From a virus (lineage: Duplodnaviria; Caudoviricetes), in the IMG/VR virus record IMGVR_UViG_3300029288_005816, positions 1-64,000 of that record: a stretch of 64,000 nucleotides of DNA. One strand, 5' to 3'. This document shows positions 28,422-62,356 of this stretch, in pieces. The position numbers and the translations under genes are program-made. Below the pieces are notes generated by a model. That model did no database searches and had not been told where the DNA came from. It saw only the letters and a program-made list of their open reading frames with translations. Position 1 is the first letter of the stretch. Each line of letters starts with the position of its first letter.

Positions 28422-29936
28422 TTAGTCTTTAATTAGTTCAAAATCTGTGGTTCTGTATTTTTCATCGCTACCTTTTGAACCTGCATTGATAGCGTTTATT
28501 GAGCCATTCCCTTTAACAATAAACCTGTTTGGGTCGAATTTGAATTCTTTAATGAGGTAATCGGCAACTGATTGTGCTCTTTTTTCTGATAATGTTTTAT
28601 TAAAAGTTGGGTTTCCAGAATTATCAGTATTTCCTTCGATACGAATTCTGGCACCAGCATTTGTTTTAGCGATTTCAACAAATTCTCTGTTGATTTTTGC
28701 TTTTGCTTCTCCAGTTAAAGTATATGAACCAGTTGGGAAATTAATTGTAACTTTTTTTGTTGTATAAGCTGTTTTATTTTTTATATCTTCTGTAACAGGA
28801 GTAAATTTCTTATTTACTTCACACAAATGGCCATTTCCAGTAAGAGTAGAACTTTTTACCAATACAGCATCAGAAACATCTCTCCATAACAAAGGATTTT
28901 CAACCATTTTAATTTTTTGATATTCTCCAGACATAGAAGTATATAATAAATCACCAGTAACCCAATTGGCATCTCCAAGACCAAAGAAATTTTTATTATC
29001 TCCATGAGTTGTGTATCTTACATTTTCCATTGAAGCCAATGCATCTGATTCTGTCATTTGAAATTTATCTGCTAAAATTTTAGCGGCTTTATCTCTTGCA
29101 TTGTCTTTGTTTGCATTAAGTTCAGAAGCACCAACCATCCAACCATCATAGAGTTTTTGCAATTTTTCTAAATTATTTTTTACATATTCTTCTTTTGCGA
29201 TAAAACCATCTGCAATAATAAATGTGGCTTCTTTTGTACTTGCTAAAACTTTAGACCCTGATACTTTTTTCACACAATCTATATCATCTGGAGACCAAAC
29301 TACAGCTGCAGCAACAGTTCCTTGTTTAAATAAATTAGCAGCATCAATAGCATTTGGAACAGGTTTAATTTCAATGTCTTCCAATGTCATGTTATTGGCC
29401 TTCAATAAATTGATTAAAAACGAATGACTTGGAGTGCCTTCTGCAACAGCTACAGTTTTACCTTTAAGGTCTGATATTTTTTCTACAGACAAATCAACTA
29501 CAATAGCATCTCCACCACGAGACCAATCGGCCTGAAATAAAAATTTAGGATTTGAGAGCGCCATAGTTCCTTGTCTGCTCATCTCTGTTGGAAGAGCATC
29601 AACGGTACACCATAACAAATCTACTTCACCAGCTTCAAATGCTTTTCTGGAAGCAAGGAAATCGTCAAGAACAACAAACTGTACCTGGATACCATAATCT
29701 TTATAAAATCTACATTCCATATTTGGCTCAAATCCGTTATTCATATACTGCCCTGCAGCATATCCTGGCCATGTAACTACGCCAATTTTAATTACACCAC
29801 CGCTTTTAGTTTTTCCTGCGAATGAATTTATTTTATCCTGGAAGGAAAAATATAAAACCCCCAAAATTAAAACAACTATTGTAGCAAGTACAATCTTGCC
29901 TCTTGTTGTCAAACCACCTGTTTTTGTTGTTGTCAT
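28422..29936 (-). CDS. membrane-anchored PBP-II substrate-binding protein fused to OmpA-like C-terminal domain
   Basis: N-terminal TM; GVVTWPGYAAG, DWSRGGDAIV; IEGNTDNSG..LSEKRAQSVADYL. Confidence 0.88.
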   Translation of the reverse strand: MTTTKTGGLTTRGKIVLATIVVLILGVLYFSFQDKINSFAGKTKSGGVIKIGVVTWPGYAAGQYMNNGFEPNMECRFYKDYGIQVQFVVLDDFLASRKAFEAGEVDLLWCTVDALPTEMSRQGTMALSNPKFLFQADWSRGGDAIVVDLSVEKISDLKGKTVAVAEGTPSHSFLINLLKANNMTLEDIEIKPVPNAIDAANLFKQGTVAAAVVWSPDDIDCVKKVSGSKVLASTKEATFIIADGFIAKEEYVKNNLEKLQKLYDGWMVGASELNANKDNARDKAAKILADKFQMTESDALASMENVRYTTHGDNKNFFGLGDANWVTGDLLYTSMSGEYQKIKMVENPLLWRDVSDAVLVKSSTLTGNGHLCEVNKKFTPVTEDIKNKTAYTTKKVTINFPTGSYTLTGEAKAKINREFVEIAKTNAGARIRIEGNTDNSGNPTFNKTLSEKRAQSVADYLIKEFKFDPNRFIVKGNGSINAINAGSKGSDEKYRTTDFELIKD

Positions 29937-35444: not shown

Positions 35445-36335
35445 TTATTTAATATAAGATTGAACTAAGTTATAGTTTCTTTTTTTACTTAAAATTTTTA
35501 AAGCATCTTTTCTTATTTGTCTTATTCTTTCTTTTGTTAAATCAAGTATCTCTCCTATTTCATCAAGACTCTTTGGCTCTTGGCCATTTAATCCATAGTA
35601 AAGTTCAATAACTAATCTATGATTTTTTGGCATATTATTTAATATATTATTGATTACTAATTTTAAATCTTCATCTTCTAATTTTTCATCAGTTTTTTTA
35701 AAGGTATAATCAGGAATTAAATTTTCAAGAGTAAAACTCTCAAATTTTGAGTTATTATTTGATACTTCAACGTTTAAAGATTGAAATCCTTTGTCAATCA
35801 AAAATATATTCTCAAAATCTTCGGGACTAATATCAAAATCGAGTATTTCAATAGTTTCATCTGTTGTCGGTTTTCTTTGATGAATTTGTTCAAATTTATC
35901 TTGAACTTTTTTTATTTTATTTAATTGCCCTATCTTATTAAGAGGAAGTCGTATACCTTTTAAGTTTTCATTTAGATAACACATTATAGATTGTCTTATC
36001 CACCACACAGCATAAGATATAAATTTACATCCTCTTGTAGAATCATATCTTCTAGCCGCTTTTATGAGCCCAATATTTCCTTCACTCACTAAATCCTCCA
36101 ATGAACATCCTTCGTTCTGATATTGTTTTGCCACGCTAATGACAAACCTCAAATTTCTTTCTATTAATTCAGTTTCTGCTTCTTTATCTCCATTTTTTAT
36201 TTTTAAAGCTAATTCTACTTCTTCATCTGGAGTTAAATTTGTGTTTTTTCCTAACTTTGACACCTCTTGTAGGTAACGATTAAATGATGCTGTTTCTCGT
36301 TTTGTAATTTGATTTGCTATTTTTAGTTGTTTCAT
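35445..36335 (-). CDS. RNA polymerase sigma-70 factor (RpoD/SigA-like, Bacteroidota style)
   Basis: SFNRYLQEV, NLRFVISVAKQYQ, DLVSEGNIGLIKAA..FISYAVWWIRQSI, SLDEIG..LTKERIRQI. Confidence 0.93.
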   Translation of the reverse strand: MKQLKIANQITKRETASFNRYLQEVSKLGKNTNLTPDEEVELALKIKNGDKEAETELIERNLRFVISVAKQYQNEGCSLEDLVSEGNIGLIKAARRYDSTRGCKFISYAVWWIRQSIMCYLNENLKGIRLPLNKIGQLNKIKKVQDKFEQIHQRKPTTDETIEILDFDISPEDFENIFLIDKGFQSLNVEVSNNNSKFESFTLENLIPDYTFKKTDEKLEDEDLKLVINNILNNMPKNHRLVIELYYGLNGQEPKSLDEIGEILDLTKERIRQIRKDALKILSKKRNYNLVQSYIK

Positions 36336-57958: not shown

Positions 57959-58186
57959 TTAAGATATAAAATGATTATATAAGCCAATCGGATTTTGATT
58001 TGGTGCCAAACCAGAAACTTGCCCAGTTGCATCTTTTTTAGTATTCTTAATAATAGAACAGTCAATATTAATATCTTCAGAAATACTCTCTCCATTAATA
58101 GAAATTTGTTTATTCTTTAGTCTAGCTTTGATATCCTGGCTAAATAATCCTTGTTGTTTTAATATTTCTGATAATTTTATTAACAT
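57959..58186 (-). CDS. hypothetical protein
   Basis: Operonic ORF. Confidence 0.55.
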   Translation of the reverse strand: MLIKLSEILKQQGLFSQDIKARLKNKQISINGESISEDINIDCSIIKNTKKDATGQVSGLAPNQNPIGLYNHFIS

Positions 58187-58201
58187 ATATCTTGGTTTAA
58201 T

Positions 58202-58387
58202 TTAAAATGGTAACATTTCTTTTTTATAAAAAGTCAATTGTTTCATTTTATTTAAAGTAATAAATTTTTTATTCATCCAATAACCTTTTGTGTAATTTAA
58301 AATAGTTAATTTAATTTGCCTACCAAATTTAGAATATAATTTTTTATTTTCGAAATAATACCCTTGAAACTCTTTTATAAAAACCAT
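58202..58387 (-). CDS. hypothetical protein
   Basis: Operonic ORF next to array edge. Confidence 0.55.
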   Translation of the reverse strand: MVFIKEFQGYYFENKKLYSKFGRQIKLTILNYTKGYWMNKKFITLNKMKQLTFYKKEMLPF

Positions 58388-58410
58388 ATTCTATACTTTA
58401 AAATTATGAT

Positions 58411-58460
58411 AATTAACACAATAAGATATAGACTAAAGTGCGATTATCCACGAGTTATGT
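58411..58460 (+). repeat. degenerate attC0 (left array border)
   Basis: R' GTTATGTGCC at 58454 complements GGCACATAAC at 58737; left arm folds poorly. Confidence 0.45.
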
Positions 58461-58464
58461 GCCA

Positions 58465-58719
58465 TTAACCGATAACATCGTGAATTGACGGCACTCTTGG
58501 TAATAGCTTCCGCATCAATGAGAAAAAACTTCTGTATTCCTCAATCTGCTTTTCCTGTTGTTGAAGTTTGCTTTCCAAATCAACTATGTGTTTGTGTGCC
58601 AAAAACCATTCATTCAATTTACCACTTTCGTCTTTTGAAGTAATGTGTTTTTTTAATTCAGCATACTTGTCGGCACACTCTTTTTTCCCCATTGCTGCTC
58701 CGTGGTCATAATAAGCCAT
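58465..58719 (-). CDS. cassette 1 hypothetical protein
   Basis: ORF enclosed by complementary core sites. Confidence 0.7.
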   Translation of the reverse strand: MAYYDHGAAMGKKECADKYAELKKHITSKDESGKLNEWFLAHKHIVDLESKLQQQEKQIEEYRSFFSLMRKLLPRVPSIHDVIG

Positions 58720-58739
58720 ATCTTTCTAAGTTTAACGGC

Positions 58740-58836
58740 ACATAACAAGGTATATATGTTATACGCCAATGAAGTGTCGTACTTAATTTTAAAACTTTAT
58801 GGTCAGGCGTACAACACATATACCCAACCGTTATAG
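58740..58836 (+). repeat. attC1
   Basis: TAAC-AA-[19-nt arm]...[19-nt arm]-CAACC-GTTA; arms pair 17/19. Confidence 0.85.
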
Positions 58837-58853
58837 GTAATAAAATTTACTAC

Positions 58854-59078
58854 CTACATTCCAATACTTTCATCATATTTAAAGCTAATCAATATAATCG
58901 GTAAAAAAACAATTATTATTACCGTCCAAAAAATTAACAATATACCCATCATCCCACCAATGAAATATTTACCAAATAACGTAAATTCCATTTCATCAAT
59001 GAACTCAAAAAACATACTTTTCCAATAATGTTTGATAATGTTCCAACTTCGTAATAATTGTTTTTTTATAAATTTCAT
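58854..59078 (-). CDS. cassette 2 membrane protein
   Basis: One TM segment; enclosed by GTTATAGGTA/TACCTATAAC. Confidence 0.7.
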   Translation of the reverse strand: MKFIKKQLLRSWNIIKHYWKSMFFEFIDEMEFTLFGKYFIGGMMGILLIFWTVIIIVFLPIILISFKYDESIGM

Positions 59079-59098
59079 AACCCGTAAATTTTACATAC

Positions 59099-59194
59099 CT
59101 ATAACAAAGTGTATAAGTAATGTGGCTAAATTAATTTATCTATAAGTTGAAAGTATGTGCAAAGCCACACTACTCATACACTCAACCGTTAGTA
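59099..59194 (+). repeat. attC2
   Basis: TAAC-AAA-[GTGTATAAGTAATGTGGCT]...[AGCCACACTACTCATACAC]-TCAACC-GTTA; 17/19. Confidence 0.88.
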
Positions 59195-59200
59195 GTAATT

Positions 59201-59407
59201 TTATTTACAATCAAATTTACTATCAAACCACTTATTAAAGTCCTCATATACGCTATTTTCGCCATCCTCACCATAATCAGCGCCTAATTGAACTCCTGCT
59301 GAAAATGCTCTTTGCAAATCATCCTTAGTAAAACTACTACTAACATCAGATATATTCAATTTTTTATCTGAGTCATCAACTCCTATGTTTTTATTTACAT
59401 CTTTCAT
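59201..59407 (-). CDS. cassette 3 hypothetical protein (start lies inside attC3)
   Basis: N-terminus KLNISDVSSS encoded by attC arm. Confidence 0.7.
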   Translation of the reverse strand: MKDVNKNIGVDDSDKKLNISDVSSSFTKDDLQRAFSAGVQLGADYGEDGENSVYEDFNKWFDSKFDCK

Positions 59408-59465
59408 TTTATTTAATTTTTGTGTTATTAATTAAGAAAACTGAATATATCTGTAACCGTTATAA
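59338..59465 (+). repeat. attC3
   Basis: 12-bp perfect arms CAGATATATTCA/TGAATATATCTG. Confidence 0.8.
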
Positions 59466-59480
59466 AACATTAAAACGATT

Positions 59481-59614
59481 TTATAACAAAGTATATAAAT
59501 AATGGTGATGTGGAGTCGAACCACCTACTCGAAGTCTCACCTGAAATTTAGGACTCGAACCTACTACTCGAAGTCTCACCGAACCACCACTATTCATATA
59601 CTCAACCGTTATAA
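59481..59614 (+). repeat. attC4 of ORF-less cassette; loop contains a 30-nt duplication
   Basis: Arms 15/17; units at 59512-59541 and 59551-59580. Confidence 0.85.
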
Positions 59615-59923
59615 TCAAAACTTCCTCCAGTCTAAATATTGTAGCTTTATCTCATTTGAGAAAAATTTAATGTCATTATCATAATCTTTTCGATTTCTTG
59701 AATCCCAAATTAAAACACCACCAGTTATAATAATACCATTTACCATTAATCTATCTCCCTTAACAATTTCAATCTGTAAGCCATTAAATTTTTCTCTTAA
59801 ACGAGTTCGTATTTCCAATTGATATTCCGTCAATTTATCCGTACTGATTATAACATCAGATATAACCAATTTAGGTTTCTGTGATTTAATCAAGTTAAGT
59901 TTTTCTAATAATCTTTTTATCAT
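59615..59923 (-). CDS. cassette 5 hypothetical protein (start inside attC5)
   Basis: KLVISDVIIS encoded by attC arm. Confidence 0.7.
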   Translation of the reverse strand: MIKRLLEKLNLIKSQKPKLVISDVIISTDKLTEYQLEIRTRLREKFNGLQIEIVKGDRLMVNGIIITGGVLIWDSRNRKDYDNDIKFFSNEIKLQYLDWRKF

Positions 59924-59979
59924 ATTTTAAGTTTTTGTATTTCAATTCCTAAACTGGTTATATCTGAGAACCGTTAGCA
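59848..59979 (+). repeat. attC5
   Basis: Arms CAGATATAACCAATTTAGG/CCTAAACTGGTTATATCTG 18/19. Confidence 0.85.
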
Positions 59980-60213
59980 ACAATGTTTTATGACCATAAC
60001 ACTTCCATATAAACCAACCGCCTCAGTAAGCATACTTTTAAAAAGCCTACATTCGTTGCTATTATAGCCTTTTTTTGCTACATAATTATCTAGTTTTTGT
60101 TGAAAGTCATCAGGCAATTGACTTTTTAAAAATTCCTGTGCATCTTTCCAAAAATCAACACTGTTGCTAACATCACGTATAGCACATTGCTGTTTGTTCT
60201 TCGTATTTTTCAT
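59974..60213 (-). CDS. cassette 6 hypothetical protein (stop in core site, start inside attC6)
   Basis: QQCAIRDVSNS; TAA is the complement of the TTA in GTTAGCAACA. Confidence 0.7.
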   Translation of the reverse strand: MKNTKNKQQCAIRDVSNSVDFWKDAQEFLKSQLPDDFQQKLDNYVAKKGYNSNECRLFKSMLTEAVGLYGSVMVIKHCC

Positions 60214-60287
60214 CGTAAATAATTTTTAAGTTTGTAATTCTAATTAAGTTATACATAAACAACGTTCCATACACGCAGCCATTATAG
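60165..60287 (+). repeat. attC6 (partly degenerate, R' = ATT)
   Basis: TGTTGCTAAC complements GTTAGCAACA; imperfect arms. Confidence 0.65.
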
Positions 60288-60297
60288 GTAATAAAAT

Positions 60298-60444
60298 TTA
60301 CTTGCCATAAATCTTTGTTAAACCTTCTTGTTCTCTTTTAGATTTACATTTATCACAATATTTCATCGTCCAAGCAGTTCCCTTGCTTTGAATAAGCCAT
60401 TCACTTGTTGCTTTTTTTCCACAATTACATTTTCCGTGCATCAT
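60298..60444 (-). CDS. cassette 7 small zinc-finger-like protein
   Basis: MMHGKCNCG...YCDKC; start placed by analogy with the cassette 2 leader. Confidence 0.55.
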   Translation of the reverse strand: MMHGKCNCGKKATSEWLIQSKGTAWTMKYCDKCKSKREQEGLTKIYGK

Positions 60445-60463
60445 ATCCGTAAATTTTACATAC

Positions 60464-60485
60464 CTATTACGACCAACCGTTATAA
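60464..60485 (+). repeat. collapsed attC7 (arms deleted)
   Basis: TACCTATTAC-GACCAACC-GTTATAA. Confidence 0.65.
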
Positions 60486-60752
60486 ACAAGTTTGTTTAAT
60501 TCTTTCAATTTCACTTTTCATCATTTGTTGTGGCGTATGATATTTTTCACAAATTTCACATTGCCAAGTGCCAGACCCAACAAAAGCAACTGGAATACCA
60601 CAGCAAATTCCAGCGAAAAAATCTAATTTATCATTCGTGTCACAAACCTGGTTTATAATACCAAATAAACTCAATAAAAAGTTTTGTGCTTCTATTTCAG
60701 TTATACAACCTTGTTCAAGGTCTTTTGCTATTTTTAATATTTGTTCTTTCAT
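60480..60752 (-). CDS. cassette 8 hypothetical protein with zinc ribbon (start inside attC8)
   Basis: LLSLFGIINQ; CCG..WQCEIC; stop in core site. Confidence 0.7.
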   Translation of the reverse strand: MKEQILKIAKDLEQGCITEIEAQNFLLSLFGIINQVCDTNDKLDFFAGICCGIPVAFVGSGTWQCEICEKYHTPQQMMKSEIERIKQTCL

Positions 60753-60785
60753 ATCTTTTACTGTGTTTATTTGTAACTATTAGAC
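60653..60785 (+). repeat. attC8 (degenerate cores TAAT/ATTA)
   Basis: Arms CAAATAAACTCAATAAAAA/CTTTTACTGTGTTTATTTG. Confidence 0.65.
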
Positions 60786-60794
60786 ACAATACTA

Positions 60795-60977
60795 CTATAC
60801 TTTTTTATAGATTGAGTTAAAATCCCTATCAGAAATGAATTGTCTTTTGCCTCTGTATAAGTAAAATATCAAATCAGTTCCTCTTTGTTTATTAGTTCCC
60901 TTTTTTATGTTATATTCATTTCCTGTTTGGATATTTTTATATCTTCCAAATTCTCTGATGTTACTAAGTTTTTCCAT
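60795..60977 (-). CDS. hypothetical protein
   Basis: Short ORF continuing the array. Confidence 0.6.
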   Translation of the reverse strand: MEKLSNIREFGRYKNIQTGNEYNIKKGTNKQRGTDLIFYLYRGKRQFISDRDFNSIYKKV

Positions 60978-61019
60978 AATTTACAGTATTGCGCCAATTA
61001 ATATAAATATCAAAAATGC

Positions 61020-61196
61020 TTATAATACACTTTTTTTAAATTTATACATTTCATGGTTATGAAATTCATATTCCATTCTTTTATAGTCTTTAAATAAACT
61101 TTTTACTTCTCTTACTTCTAAACACTTGAATTTCCTAATACAATTTCCATAATAGTAAAATTGCCCTATTTCTAAATCATTTATAGTTAAACCCAT
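61020..61196 (-). CDS. hypothetical protein (58 aa, not in ORF track)
   Basis: Hand translation MGLTINDLEIGQFYYY...KKSVL. Confidence 0.55.
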   Translation of the reverse strand: MGLTINDLEIGQFYYYGNCIRKFKCLEVREVKSLFKDYKRMEYEFHNHEMYKFKKSVL

Positions 61197-61228
61197 ATAT
61201 TTAAGTATTTTAAAATTTTCTAGTATAA

Positions 61229-61510
61229 TTATAGCATTACTTTATATACCAACATTGTGTCTGAAAAATGAGACCTGTTTCCATCTATTAGCCTGAAAGC
61301 ATTTTCAAAGACGCCTTCCCACTCTGTTGGAATTGGTTCTGTCTTTTTAAAAACATAAGCTCCCTTACGAAATCCTCCATGTCCACTATCATCTCCATCT
61401 ATTGGAAAATCTACAAAATGTTCGTATACTTTTAATTCTCCGAACGTTAATGGCTTCGACATTGTAGTTCTAGCCAGCACATTTTTATTGGACTCTTTAT
61501 TTTTTTTCAT
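61229..61510 (-). CDS. hypothetical protein
   Basis: LTFGELKVYEHFVDFPIDGDDSGHGGF. Confidence 0.65.
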   Translation of the reverse strand: MKKNKESNKNVLARTTMSKPLTFGELKVYEHFVDFPIDGDDSGHGGFRKGAYVFKKTEPIPTEWEGVFENAFRLIDGNRSHFSDTMLVYKVML

Positions 61511-61533
61511 TGTTATATTTTATAATAATTTTA

Positions 61534-61719
61534 TTAAATATATCGTACAATTTTATCTTTTTCTCCATTAAGAGCATTTTTGGCATATTCTTCAGCTTGT
61601 ACAACCATCCTGTCCATGCAAGTTTTTTTATCTTCGCATCCATATGTGTTTGAGACCAGCCTTAATGCTTCTTTTATGGATTCAAGTTGAAATTTATAAA
61701 TAGTTATTTTTTCCATCAT
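61534..61719 (-). CDS. hypothetical protein
   Basis: KITIYKFQLESIKEALRL. Confidence 0.6.
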   Translation of the reverse strand: MMEKITIYKFQLESIKEALRLVSNTYGCEDKKTCMDRMVVQAEEYAKNALNGEKDKIVRYI

Positions 61720-61727
61720 TATTTATT

Positions 61728-62045
61728 TTATGCAAGCAATTCAAAATCGTACATGACCCCATTTCCAACGTATGACAAACAAACATAATCATTATCATTC
61801 CAGATGTCAATTTCATATCTCAACTCTTCATCATTCCAATCAAATGACCCAATTAATTCTTTGTGTTCATGAAGTTCTCTCATAAATTTAAATTTGAAAC
61901 GTTGCCCTTCCTTTATTGACTTTCCATTTTTGTCTTCCCTTACAATGGTAAGTTGTTCTATTTTTGTCTCTAAATCATTAATTGTTTCAGTGCATTCGAT
62001 GTATTTTCCACCGATTTTTGCATATACTTTACCTTTGTATTCCAT
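61728..62045 (-). CDS. YopX-like protein
   Basis: DKNGKSIKEGQRF. Confidence 0.5.
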   Translation of the reverse strand: MEYKGKVYAKIGGKYIECTETINDLETKIEQLTIVREDKNGKSIKEGQRFKFKFMRELHEHKELIGSFDWNDEELRYEIDIWNDNDYVCLSYVGNGVMYDFELLA

Positions 62046-62071
62046 TTTATTGTGTAAATTTTTATTTAATT

Positions 62072-62095
62072 ATACGTATTTTTTGGCTATTTGTT
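62072..62095 (-). promoter_or_regulatory. ECF-like promoter AAC-N16-CGTAT (would transcribe into the cassette array)
   Basis: TGTAAC...ACGTATAA. Confidence 0.7.
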
Positions 62096-62308
62096 ACAAA
62101 TTGCATATGTGTTTAAAAACCATTTTGGGTTATTTATTACTTCCTCTTTTGTAAAATTATACATTTTTAATTTACCTTCAATGACTTCTTCATCAGTCAT
62201 TGAGTAATAAAAATTGCCATTAATATCTTCTTTAAATATTCTGCCTTTAGGACAATTTGGTAACTTCTTTATTAATATTAATTTTCTTTGTTTTTCCATA
62301 TATTTCAA
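62087..62308 (-). CDS. hypothetical protein
   Basis: First ORF after promoter at 62333. Confidence 0.6.
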   Translation of the reverse strand: MKYMEKQRKLILIKKLPNCPKGRIFKEDINGNFYYSMTDEEVIEGKLKMYNFTKEEVINNPKWFLNTYAICNK

Positions 62309-62332
62309 AATAAAGTTTATATTACATATTTT

Positions 62333-62356
62333 ATACGAAAAATATAAAAAAAAGTT
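62333..62356 (-). promoter_or_regulatory. ECF-like promoter AAC-N16-CGTAT
   Basis: TTAAC...TCGTATAA. Confidence 0.7.

Follow-up and report, generated by a model that had tools for sequence, protein, structure and literature searches.

How a tailed phage comes to carry a row of small genes, each closed by the reverse complement of its own start and set apart from the next by a hairpin, is the question raised by positions 58454–60787 of the Caudoviricetes record IMGVR_UViG_3300029288_005816. The window analysed here is the stretch from position 1 to 64,000 (64,000 nt) of that record. The record as a whole, a linear virus fragment of 90,754 bp, is 57% complete. Our proposed explanation, which we consider probable, is that the locus is an ageing and orphan array of cassettes belonging to an integron-like system found in phages of Bacteroidota and in their hosts. 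The array works like an integron cassette array yet fails two defining tests, one for the extrahelical bases of attC sites and one for the integron integrase IntI; because both failed, we treat the system as a variant and not as a member of the integrons.

All 16 start and end motifs of the eight units proposed by a first-pass annotation were found where it had placed them, with pairs 1–6 matching perfectly over 9–10 nt and pairs 7 and 8 carrying core mutations. Exact 9-nt reverse complements within 450 nt accompanied 7 of the 23 GTTR triplets in the array (six being cassette ends and one incidental) and 1 of the 455 on the remaining plus strand, which confirms the units with complementary ends as real and well beyond what chance would give. 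Read on the plus strand, they are cassette 1 (58454–58829, 376 bp; cargo to 58746, hairpin 1 at 58747–58829), cassette 2 (58830–59187, 358 bp; hairpin 2 at 59106–59187), cassette 3 (59188–59458, 271 bp; hairpin 3 at 59345–59458), cassette 4 (59459–59607, 149 bp; a 29-nt cargo without an open reading frame (ORF), hairpin 4 at 59488–59607), cassette 5 (59608–59972, 365 bp; hairpin 5 at 59855–59972), cassette 6 (59973–60280, 308 bp; a decayed hairpin 6 at 60172–60280), cassette 7 (60281–60478, 198 bp; inactivated, its hairpin deleted to 8 nt) and cassette 8 (60479–60778, 300 bp; hairpin 8 at 60660–60778, with AAT/ATT cores). The left end is a hairpin-less entry site on the same strand (58436–58457, ..CCACGA|GTTA) with no hairpin upstream, probably a degenerate attI-like or secondary insertion site. 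Hairpins had been proposed between all segments, which holds for most of them but not for junction 7 (60471–60478), where only 8 nt remain; junction 6 is present but decayed, with ATT instead of the GTT of its relatives. Decay thus grows rightwards, from hairpin 6 (ATT, unfolded) through the deleted hairpin 7 to the eighth, which ends the array at ATT 60779 and whose stem, despite its decayed cores, scores 7/7 in the variant geometry described below. A heavily decayed ninth cassette with partial end complementarity may follow (60779–61060, plus strand), with a 60-amino-acid (aa) ORF on the minus strand (60795–60977).

Comparison with other genomes upheld the claim that these are mobile cassettes recombining at G|TT. 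Cassettes 1, 2, 5 and 6 were found again in unrelated contigs, with homology boundaries at the same G|TT. Cassette 1 recurs in at least eight other phage contigs, in which homology begins at G|TT 58454 and the upstream DNA differs, and in one of them it comes first, next to a recombinase gene; cassette 2 is identical at 364 of 364 nt, with exact ends, in a 318-kb contig (L239) from a sample that also contains the window phage, within a full array adjoining a 266-aa recombinase; cassette 5 reappears at 92% identity in an unrelated phage (L003), with homology stopping exactly at GTT 59973–59975; and cassette 6 is 83–85% identical in three other contexts, with boundaries at 59973 and 60284. Whole units, then, pass from genome to genome, and their breakpoints fall at G|TT.

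Parts of units also recur in new combinations. The cargo of cassette 1 was seen with three different hairpins, homology stopping at TAAC, and hairpin 2 and the hairpin 3 family recur with other cargos; the 29-mer of unit 4, the same or covarying, occurs in more than 20 distinct contexts, and the end shells of ~22 nt that cassettes 2 and 7 have in common surround at least four unrelated cargos. Among 401 units compared, 15 pairs had the same cargo with different hairpins, 7 had both the same and 154 had the same hairpin with different cargos. In attC sites, deletion of the extrahelical bases favours use of the top strand (PMC5027507), so that AA|C cleavage between two hairpins could swap hairpins, with gene conversion as an alternative. 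The ORF of cassette 7 (within 60288–60460) also occurs in other genomes without cassette ends (L305–L308; for example, L305:3001–3147 and L306:3001–3147), one copy lying in a phage operon after YqaJ with part of the shell retained; these are probably domesticated cassettes and possibly the source gene.

The sites themselves resemble attC in some respects and depart from it in others. Hairpins 1–5 fold on the minus strand with z scores of −2.3 to −3.8 (hairpin 6, at z = +0.2, gave no fold), and their minus (bottom) strand is more stable than the plus strand by 1.8–5.4 kcal/mol, bottom-strand stability being a criterion for attC (PMC5027507). As in integrons, R″ and R′ cores (RYYYAAC ... GTTRRRY) are present together with complementarity across the cassette, which amounted to 4.8/6 versus 2.2/6 within the site (188 cassettes), and homology breakpoints place the crossover at G|TT. 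In contrast, an extrahelical base in L″ with a register-matched spacer was absent. A test of canonical geometry, validated with 13 Vibrio and 2 PH101 sites that scored 6–7/7, gave 1–3/7 for hairpins 1–5, whereas these scored 7/7 in a variant geometry having an R′ arm 3–4 nt longer, no bulge and no extrahelical base. When junctions were defined by end complementarity alone, with no stem assumed (n = 232), 186 were variant and 1 canonical. Compensatory changes were found at 9 of 11 stem pairs (0 of 500 shuffles), a result that leans favourable since the sites were chosen for pairing, and intact sites are hairpins of ~48–130 nt with fixed polarity (256 versus 1 inverted). Of six phage attC sites assayed previously, five were active with IntI1, the integrase of class 1 integrons, and P12002L_attC1 was the sole failure (Qi et al. 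2023, PMC9892861); that site has the geometry and the 11-nt loop of the variant family. Polaribacter phage P12002L (L298) carries at least six more variant-geometry sites among small minus-strand genes, beyond the two tested in that study.

The 11-nt loop, CATTAAAACGA (59468–59478), is enclosed in cassette 4 by the inverted ends of the cargo. It is near-invariant (91 of 95 matches), its closing stems covary, and it is present in minimal hairpins of 48 nt as well as in the 29-nt cargo, perhaps as a protein-binding loop. Variable spacing and the lack of AAC in the 29-nt unit led us to reject the idea that it belongs to an AAC-N16-CGT promoter. The loop of hairpin 4 (59500–59590) contains a 39-nt duplication (D12) and, on the minus strand, GGTTCGA motifs resembling a tRNA T-arm; a similar T-arm-like motif follows the same 29-nt unit in another contig (L013). 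Hairpin 4 had no match in Rfam and no tRNA match by ARAGORN.

As for the enzyme, arrays of related phages adjoin a gene for a 265–272-aa Xer-like tyrosine recombinase. At 57 such loci, 256 sites lay upstream of the gene, 6 downstream and 1 inverted, and the arrays are headed by a TATA-rich attI-like G|TT site 50–70 nt before the recombinase start codon. The protein has SAM_4 and phage-integrase domains and scores 155–159 bits on TIGR02249 (IntI; cut-off 265), 188–194 bits on NF040815 (XerA; cut-off 220) and far below the cut-offs for XerC and XerD, its best profile and PDB-sequence matches being of XerA type (NF040815; PDB 4A8E and 5HXY). It is without the ~50 residues of the IntI insertion that is essential for integron function (PMC8138268). 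The first-pass annotation had called the pattern an established signature of IntI acting on attC, a description that the failed site geometry, the missing insertion and the inactivity of P12002L_attC1 with IntI1 leave unsupported. Of the cultured Polaribacter phages Freya_1 and Freya_10, the latter has an additional 4.9-kb cassette block, inserted exactly at G|TT upstream of the recombinase gene. The integrases of the Polaribacter phages Freya/Danklef and of Cellulophaga phage Ingeline belong to the same recombinase family, at 36–39% identity; in Bartlau et al. 2021 (PMC8776804), the gene is called integrase and read as a sign of lysogeny, and the words integron and cassette are absent.

A sister phage of 229 kb (G001), which has a terminase-family match and whose region of ~48–142 kb is collinear with the window contig, carries a recombinase, an entry site and cassettes ~21 kb outside the covered part, suggesting that the window phage may also encode the enzyme, in its missing region. 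Taken with the arrays of relatives and of L239, this agrees with the earlier suggestion of a tyrosine recombinase, encoded elsewhere, as the likely agent. The sister phage also has isolated minimal hairpin sites at 28775 and 119209 (L213, L001), one of them remote from the recombinase.

Each unit has the form G|TT–cargo–AAC–hairpin. In the mechanism that we propose, the recombinase would bind the folded single (minus) strand of the site, the AAC/GTT core, the 3–4-nt asymmetric spacer and the bulge-free stem replacing the extrahelical-base code of attC, and would excise units as circles and insert them at G|TT, with the newest leftmost. For the array in the window, the enzyme would have acted in trans, from a co-infecting phage, the host or a prophage, or would be encoded in the missing ~43% of the genome.

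Several observations weigh against this mechanism for the locus at hand. The contig search that the first-pass annotation had proposed for an IntI-like tyrosine recombinase came back empty: none was found in the 90.8-kb contig with PF00589, TIGR02249 or the L239 protein, and a leftward extension gained 7 kb, with neither recombinase nor sites, before it stalled. The enzyme is paired with the sites by co-location alone, and the array's own entry site matches the family's attI-like profile poorly (rank 143 of 1,181). Cassette order is unchanged in near-identical assemblies, and neither an excised circle nor a reordering of this array was seen in the runs and assemblies examined. At the right junction (60779), another contig (L235) has a different hairpin and an intact GTT, but for the 14 nt following the GTT its sequence differs, a pattern easier to reconcile with homologous exchange than with a clean site-specific insertion.

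In X1 and X2, two possible source runs, unitigs split at exactly 58457 and come together again at 60794, the depths in X2 being 31, 21 and 32; with the L235 junction, this suggests that a co-occurring allele is probably different throughout the array. Joints in these run data, whose sides are short, were left out of the evidence. Two contigs (L226 and L227) initially taken as strain variants diverging at G|TT 59188 were withdrawn as such, since downstream they match L239 at 100% identity and could equally well be mis-joins across the 364 nt of cassette 2 that they have in common. A metagenome scan for the entry site yielded only that same contig and no alternative left junction. Whereas the first-pass annotation had described a shufflable array, that word suits the family; this array keeps its order in near-identical assemblies, its one apparent variant may be an assembly chimera, and its right half is decayed.

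The alternative to which we give most weight, though still an unlikely one, is that the block was taken over from the array of another phage, for the most part by homologous or micro-homology recombination, and is now a frozen relic whose hairpins serve in this genome as shared homology instead of as live sites. The lack of a recombinase, the poor attI-like site, the rightward decay, the divergence of L235 past GTT and the wide distribution of the hairpin families as repeats would all fit, whereas a fully identical cassette 2 that ends exactly at G|TT in a genome co-occurring with this one, and the breaking of unitigs exactly at the entry G|TTA, would not. This alternative concerns the route by which the array arrived and is compatible with the integron-like system favoured for the family. 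Far less probable is a classical cluster of attC sites lacking integron integrases (CALIN), that is, ordinary attC cassettes from a host integron moved by a true IntI. Such clusters agree with the array in their AAC/GTT core, in chain complementarity and in favouring the minus strand when folded, they are published from phages with sites mostly active with IntI1, and both IntI and the partner recombinase carry a SAM_4 domain; set against this are the low canonical scores of hairpins 1–5 beside the Vibrio and PH101 controls, a partner without the IntI insertion, the failure of P12002L_attC1 and the antisense cargo.

More improbable again is a reading of the hairpins as regulatory RNA elements (terminators, or processing or translation signals) in place of recombination sites. 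Start codons within four hairpins, the invariant 11-nt loop, the T-arm-like motifs and G-T pairs on the coding strand speak for it, but it leaves the cross-unit complementarity, the G|TT breakpoints and the 256:6 bias towards the recombinase unexplained, and no site was terminator-like; an additional regulatory role of the hairpins is possible. That the locus is an assembly chimera of phage and bacterial DNA we consider least probable of all and largely refuted. In its favour, another genome has cassette 2 as a perfect repeat, and L226 and L227 look like such chimeras; yet a single unitig of run X1 covers 58428–60777, and contigs of the independent run X3 (58068–58778 and 59576–62127) span both flanks, showing that the locus is not a chimera, while composition and gene strand of the array agree with its flanks and other assemblies agree as well. 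The bacterial chimera that the first-pass annotation had named as a risk is not borne out, and the locus is genuinely that of a phage.

Returning to the integron-like array that we favour, its cargo departs from the integron convention in orientation. All seven array ORFs lie antisense, on the minus strand: in cassette 1 (58465–58719, 84 aa, in a protein cluster of 163), cassette 2 (58854–59078, 74 aa, hydrophobic), cassette 3 (59201–59407, 68 aa), cassette 5 (59615–59923, 102 aa), cassette 6 (59974–60213, 79 aa), cassette 7 (60298–60444, 48 aa) and cassette 8 (60480–60752, 90 aa), those of cassettes 3, 5, 6 and 8 starting inside their own hairpins. Among phage relatives, cargo was antisense in 178 of 188 cassettes, 66 of which start inside the hairpin, and unit ends often provide the start and stop codons of the cargo. 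At bacterial genome loci, cargo was sense in 11 of 15; in this small sample (L243–L295), sites often lie downstream of the recombinase, in contrast to the phages. Given the antisense orientation, cargo expression is most likely from promoters to the right of the array. A promoter-like motif, AAC-N16-CGTAT, matches by pattern at 62072–62095 (minus strand), upstream on the coding strand of the variable island that includes the array, with a second copy at 62333–62356, and these are candidate promoters of the cargo genes; counts of sigma-70 promoters were at chance level, and no terminators were found. The cargo proteins had no convincing Pfam, PHROG or ESM Atlas family, and their genes would be small accessory genes, for which a role in host take-over or counter-defence is only a guess.

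The variable island (58190–62330), made up of small minus-strand ORFs, is absent from the sister phage, and a 61-aa ORF adjoining the entry site had no relatives among viral contigs. To its left, a 75-aa ORF (57959–58186) has the look of two genes fused in frame by the deletion of ~10 kb: in the sister phage, a 113-aa gene matches residues 1–46, and the last part of a 293-aa gene, 10 kb away, matches residues 55–75; strain L225 carries here a 127-aa gene along with other genes. Host-like genes in the window (1365–42141) include those for IF-3, Pth2, SmpB, ClpP, a sigma-70 factor (35445–36335) and RecD2, with DnaJ-like and RNA 2′-phosphotransferase genes further right in the phage. Within 88021–90754 of the record, an 810-aa ORF has its opening part repeated where the contig ends (from 90543), which suggests that the assembly broke at a tandem paralogue. 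The host is inferred to belong to the Bacteroidota, as bacterial homologues of the partner recombinase are mostly from this phylum and cultured carriers infect Polaribacter and Cellulophaga.

Folded single-strand recombination in integrons is thought to need both the IntI insertion and extrahelical bases (PMC8138268, PMC5027507), and if a system having neither is widespread, it would offer phages a little-recognised way of turning over their accessory genes, one in which co-occurring phages traded small genes recently enough to leave an identical 364-nt cassette, and could be a living model of the step from Xer to IntI. More tentatively, and somewhat against the odds, this may be a phage cassette system with an Xer-like enzyme running parallel to integrons, in which the enzyme handles folded single-strand sites without the IntI insertion, cargo and hairpin are separately exchangeable at AAC and GTT, and reusable shells, by providing start and stop signals, turn captured DNA into expressed cassettes. 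If this is true, the step from Xer to IntI and the genesis of cassettes would become directly testable in cultured Polaribacter phages; cargo shared between different hairpins and shells shared between different cargos bear on cassette genesis, an open question (PMC8618304). The window locus itself would be an orphan, partly decayed example.

Compared with known systems, the family shares with class 1 and Vibrio integrons the AAC/GTT core, the G|TT crossover, end complementarity across the cassette, folded sites that favour one strand, and an array beside a divergently oriented tyrosine recombinase, probably with the newest cassette adjoining it. It differs in that its sites have no extrahelical base, an R′ arm 3–4 nt longer and start codons inside the site, and in a partner recombinase that is ~50 aa shorter, without the IntI insertion; unlike in integrons, the antisense phage cargo could not be read from a promoter on the attI side. 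Simple recombinases of the XerA and XerCD type are the closest profile match, yet the partner falls below the cut-offs for NF040815, XerC and XerD. The known substrates of Xer recombinases are double-stranded dif sites and not cassette arrays, and instead of 28-bp double-stranded sites flanking modules in either orientation, we found hairpins of fixed polarity. A literature search, with most subscription journals outside its coverage, returned no description of this variant system. Phage-borne attC clusters are, however, already published: those of Qi et al. 2023 (PMC9892861) likewise include clusters of attC-like sites in phages without an integrase, such as P12002L, but were described as ordinary attC sites for IntI, without the variant geometry, a cognate recombinase or antisense cargo. 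The Freya/Danklef/Ingeline integrase, in turn, belongs to the very family found beside the variant arrays, in isolates that differ by cassette blocks at the upstream G|TT.

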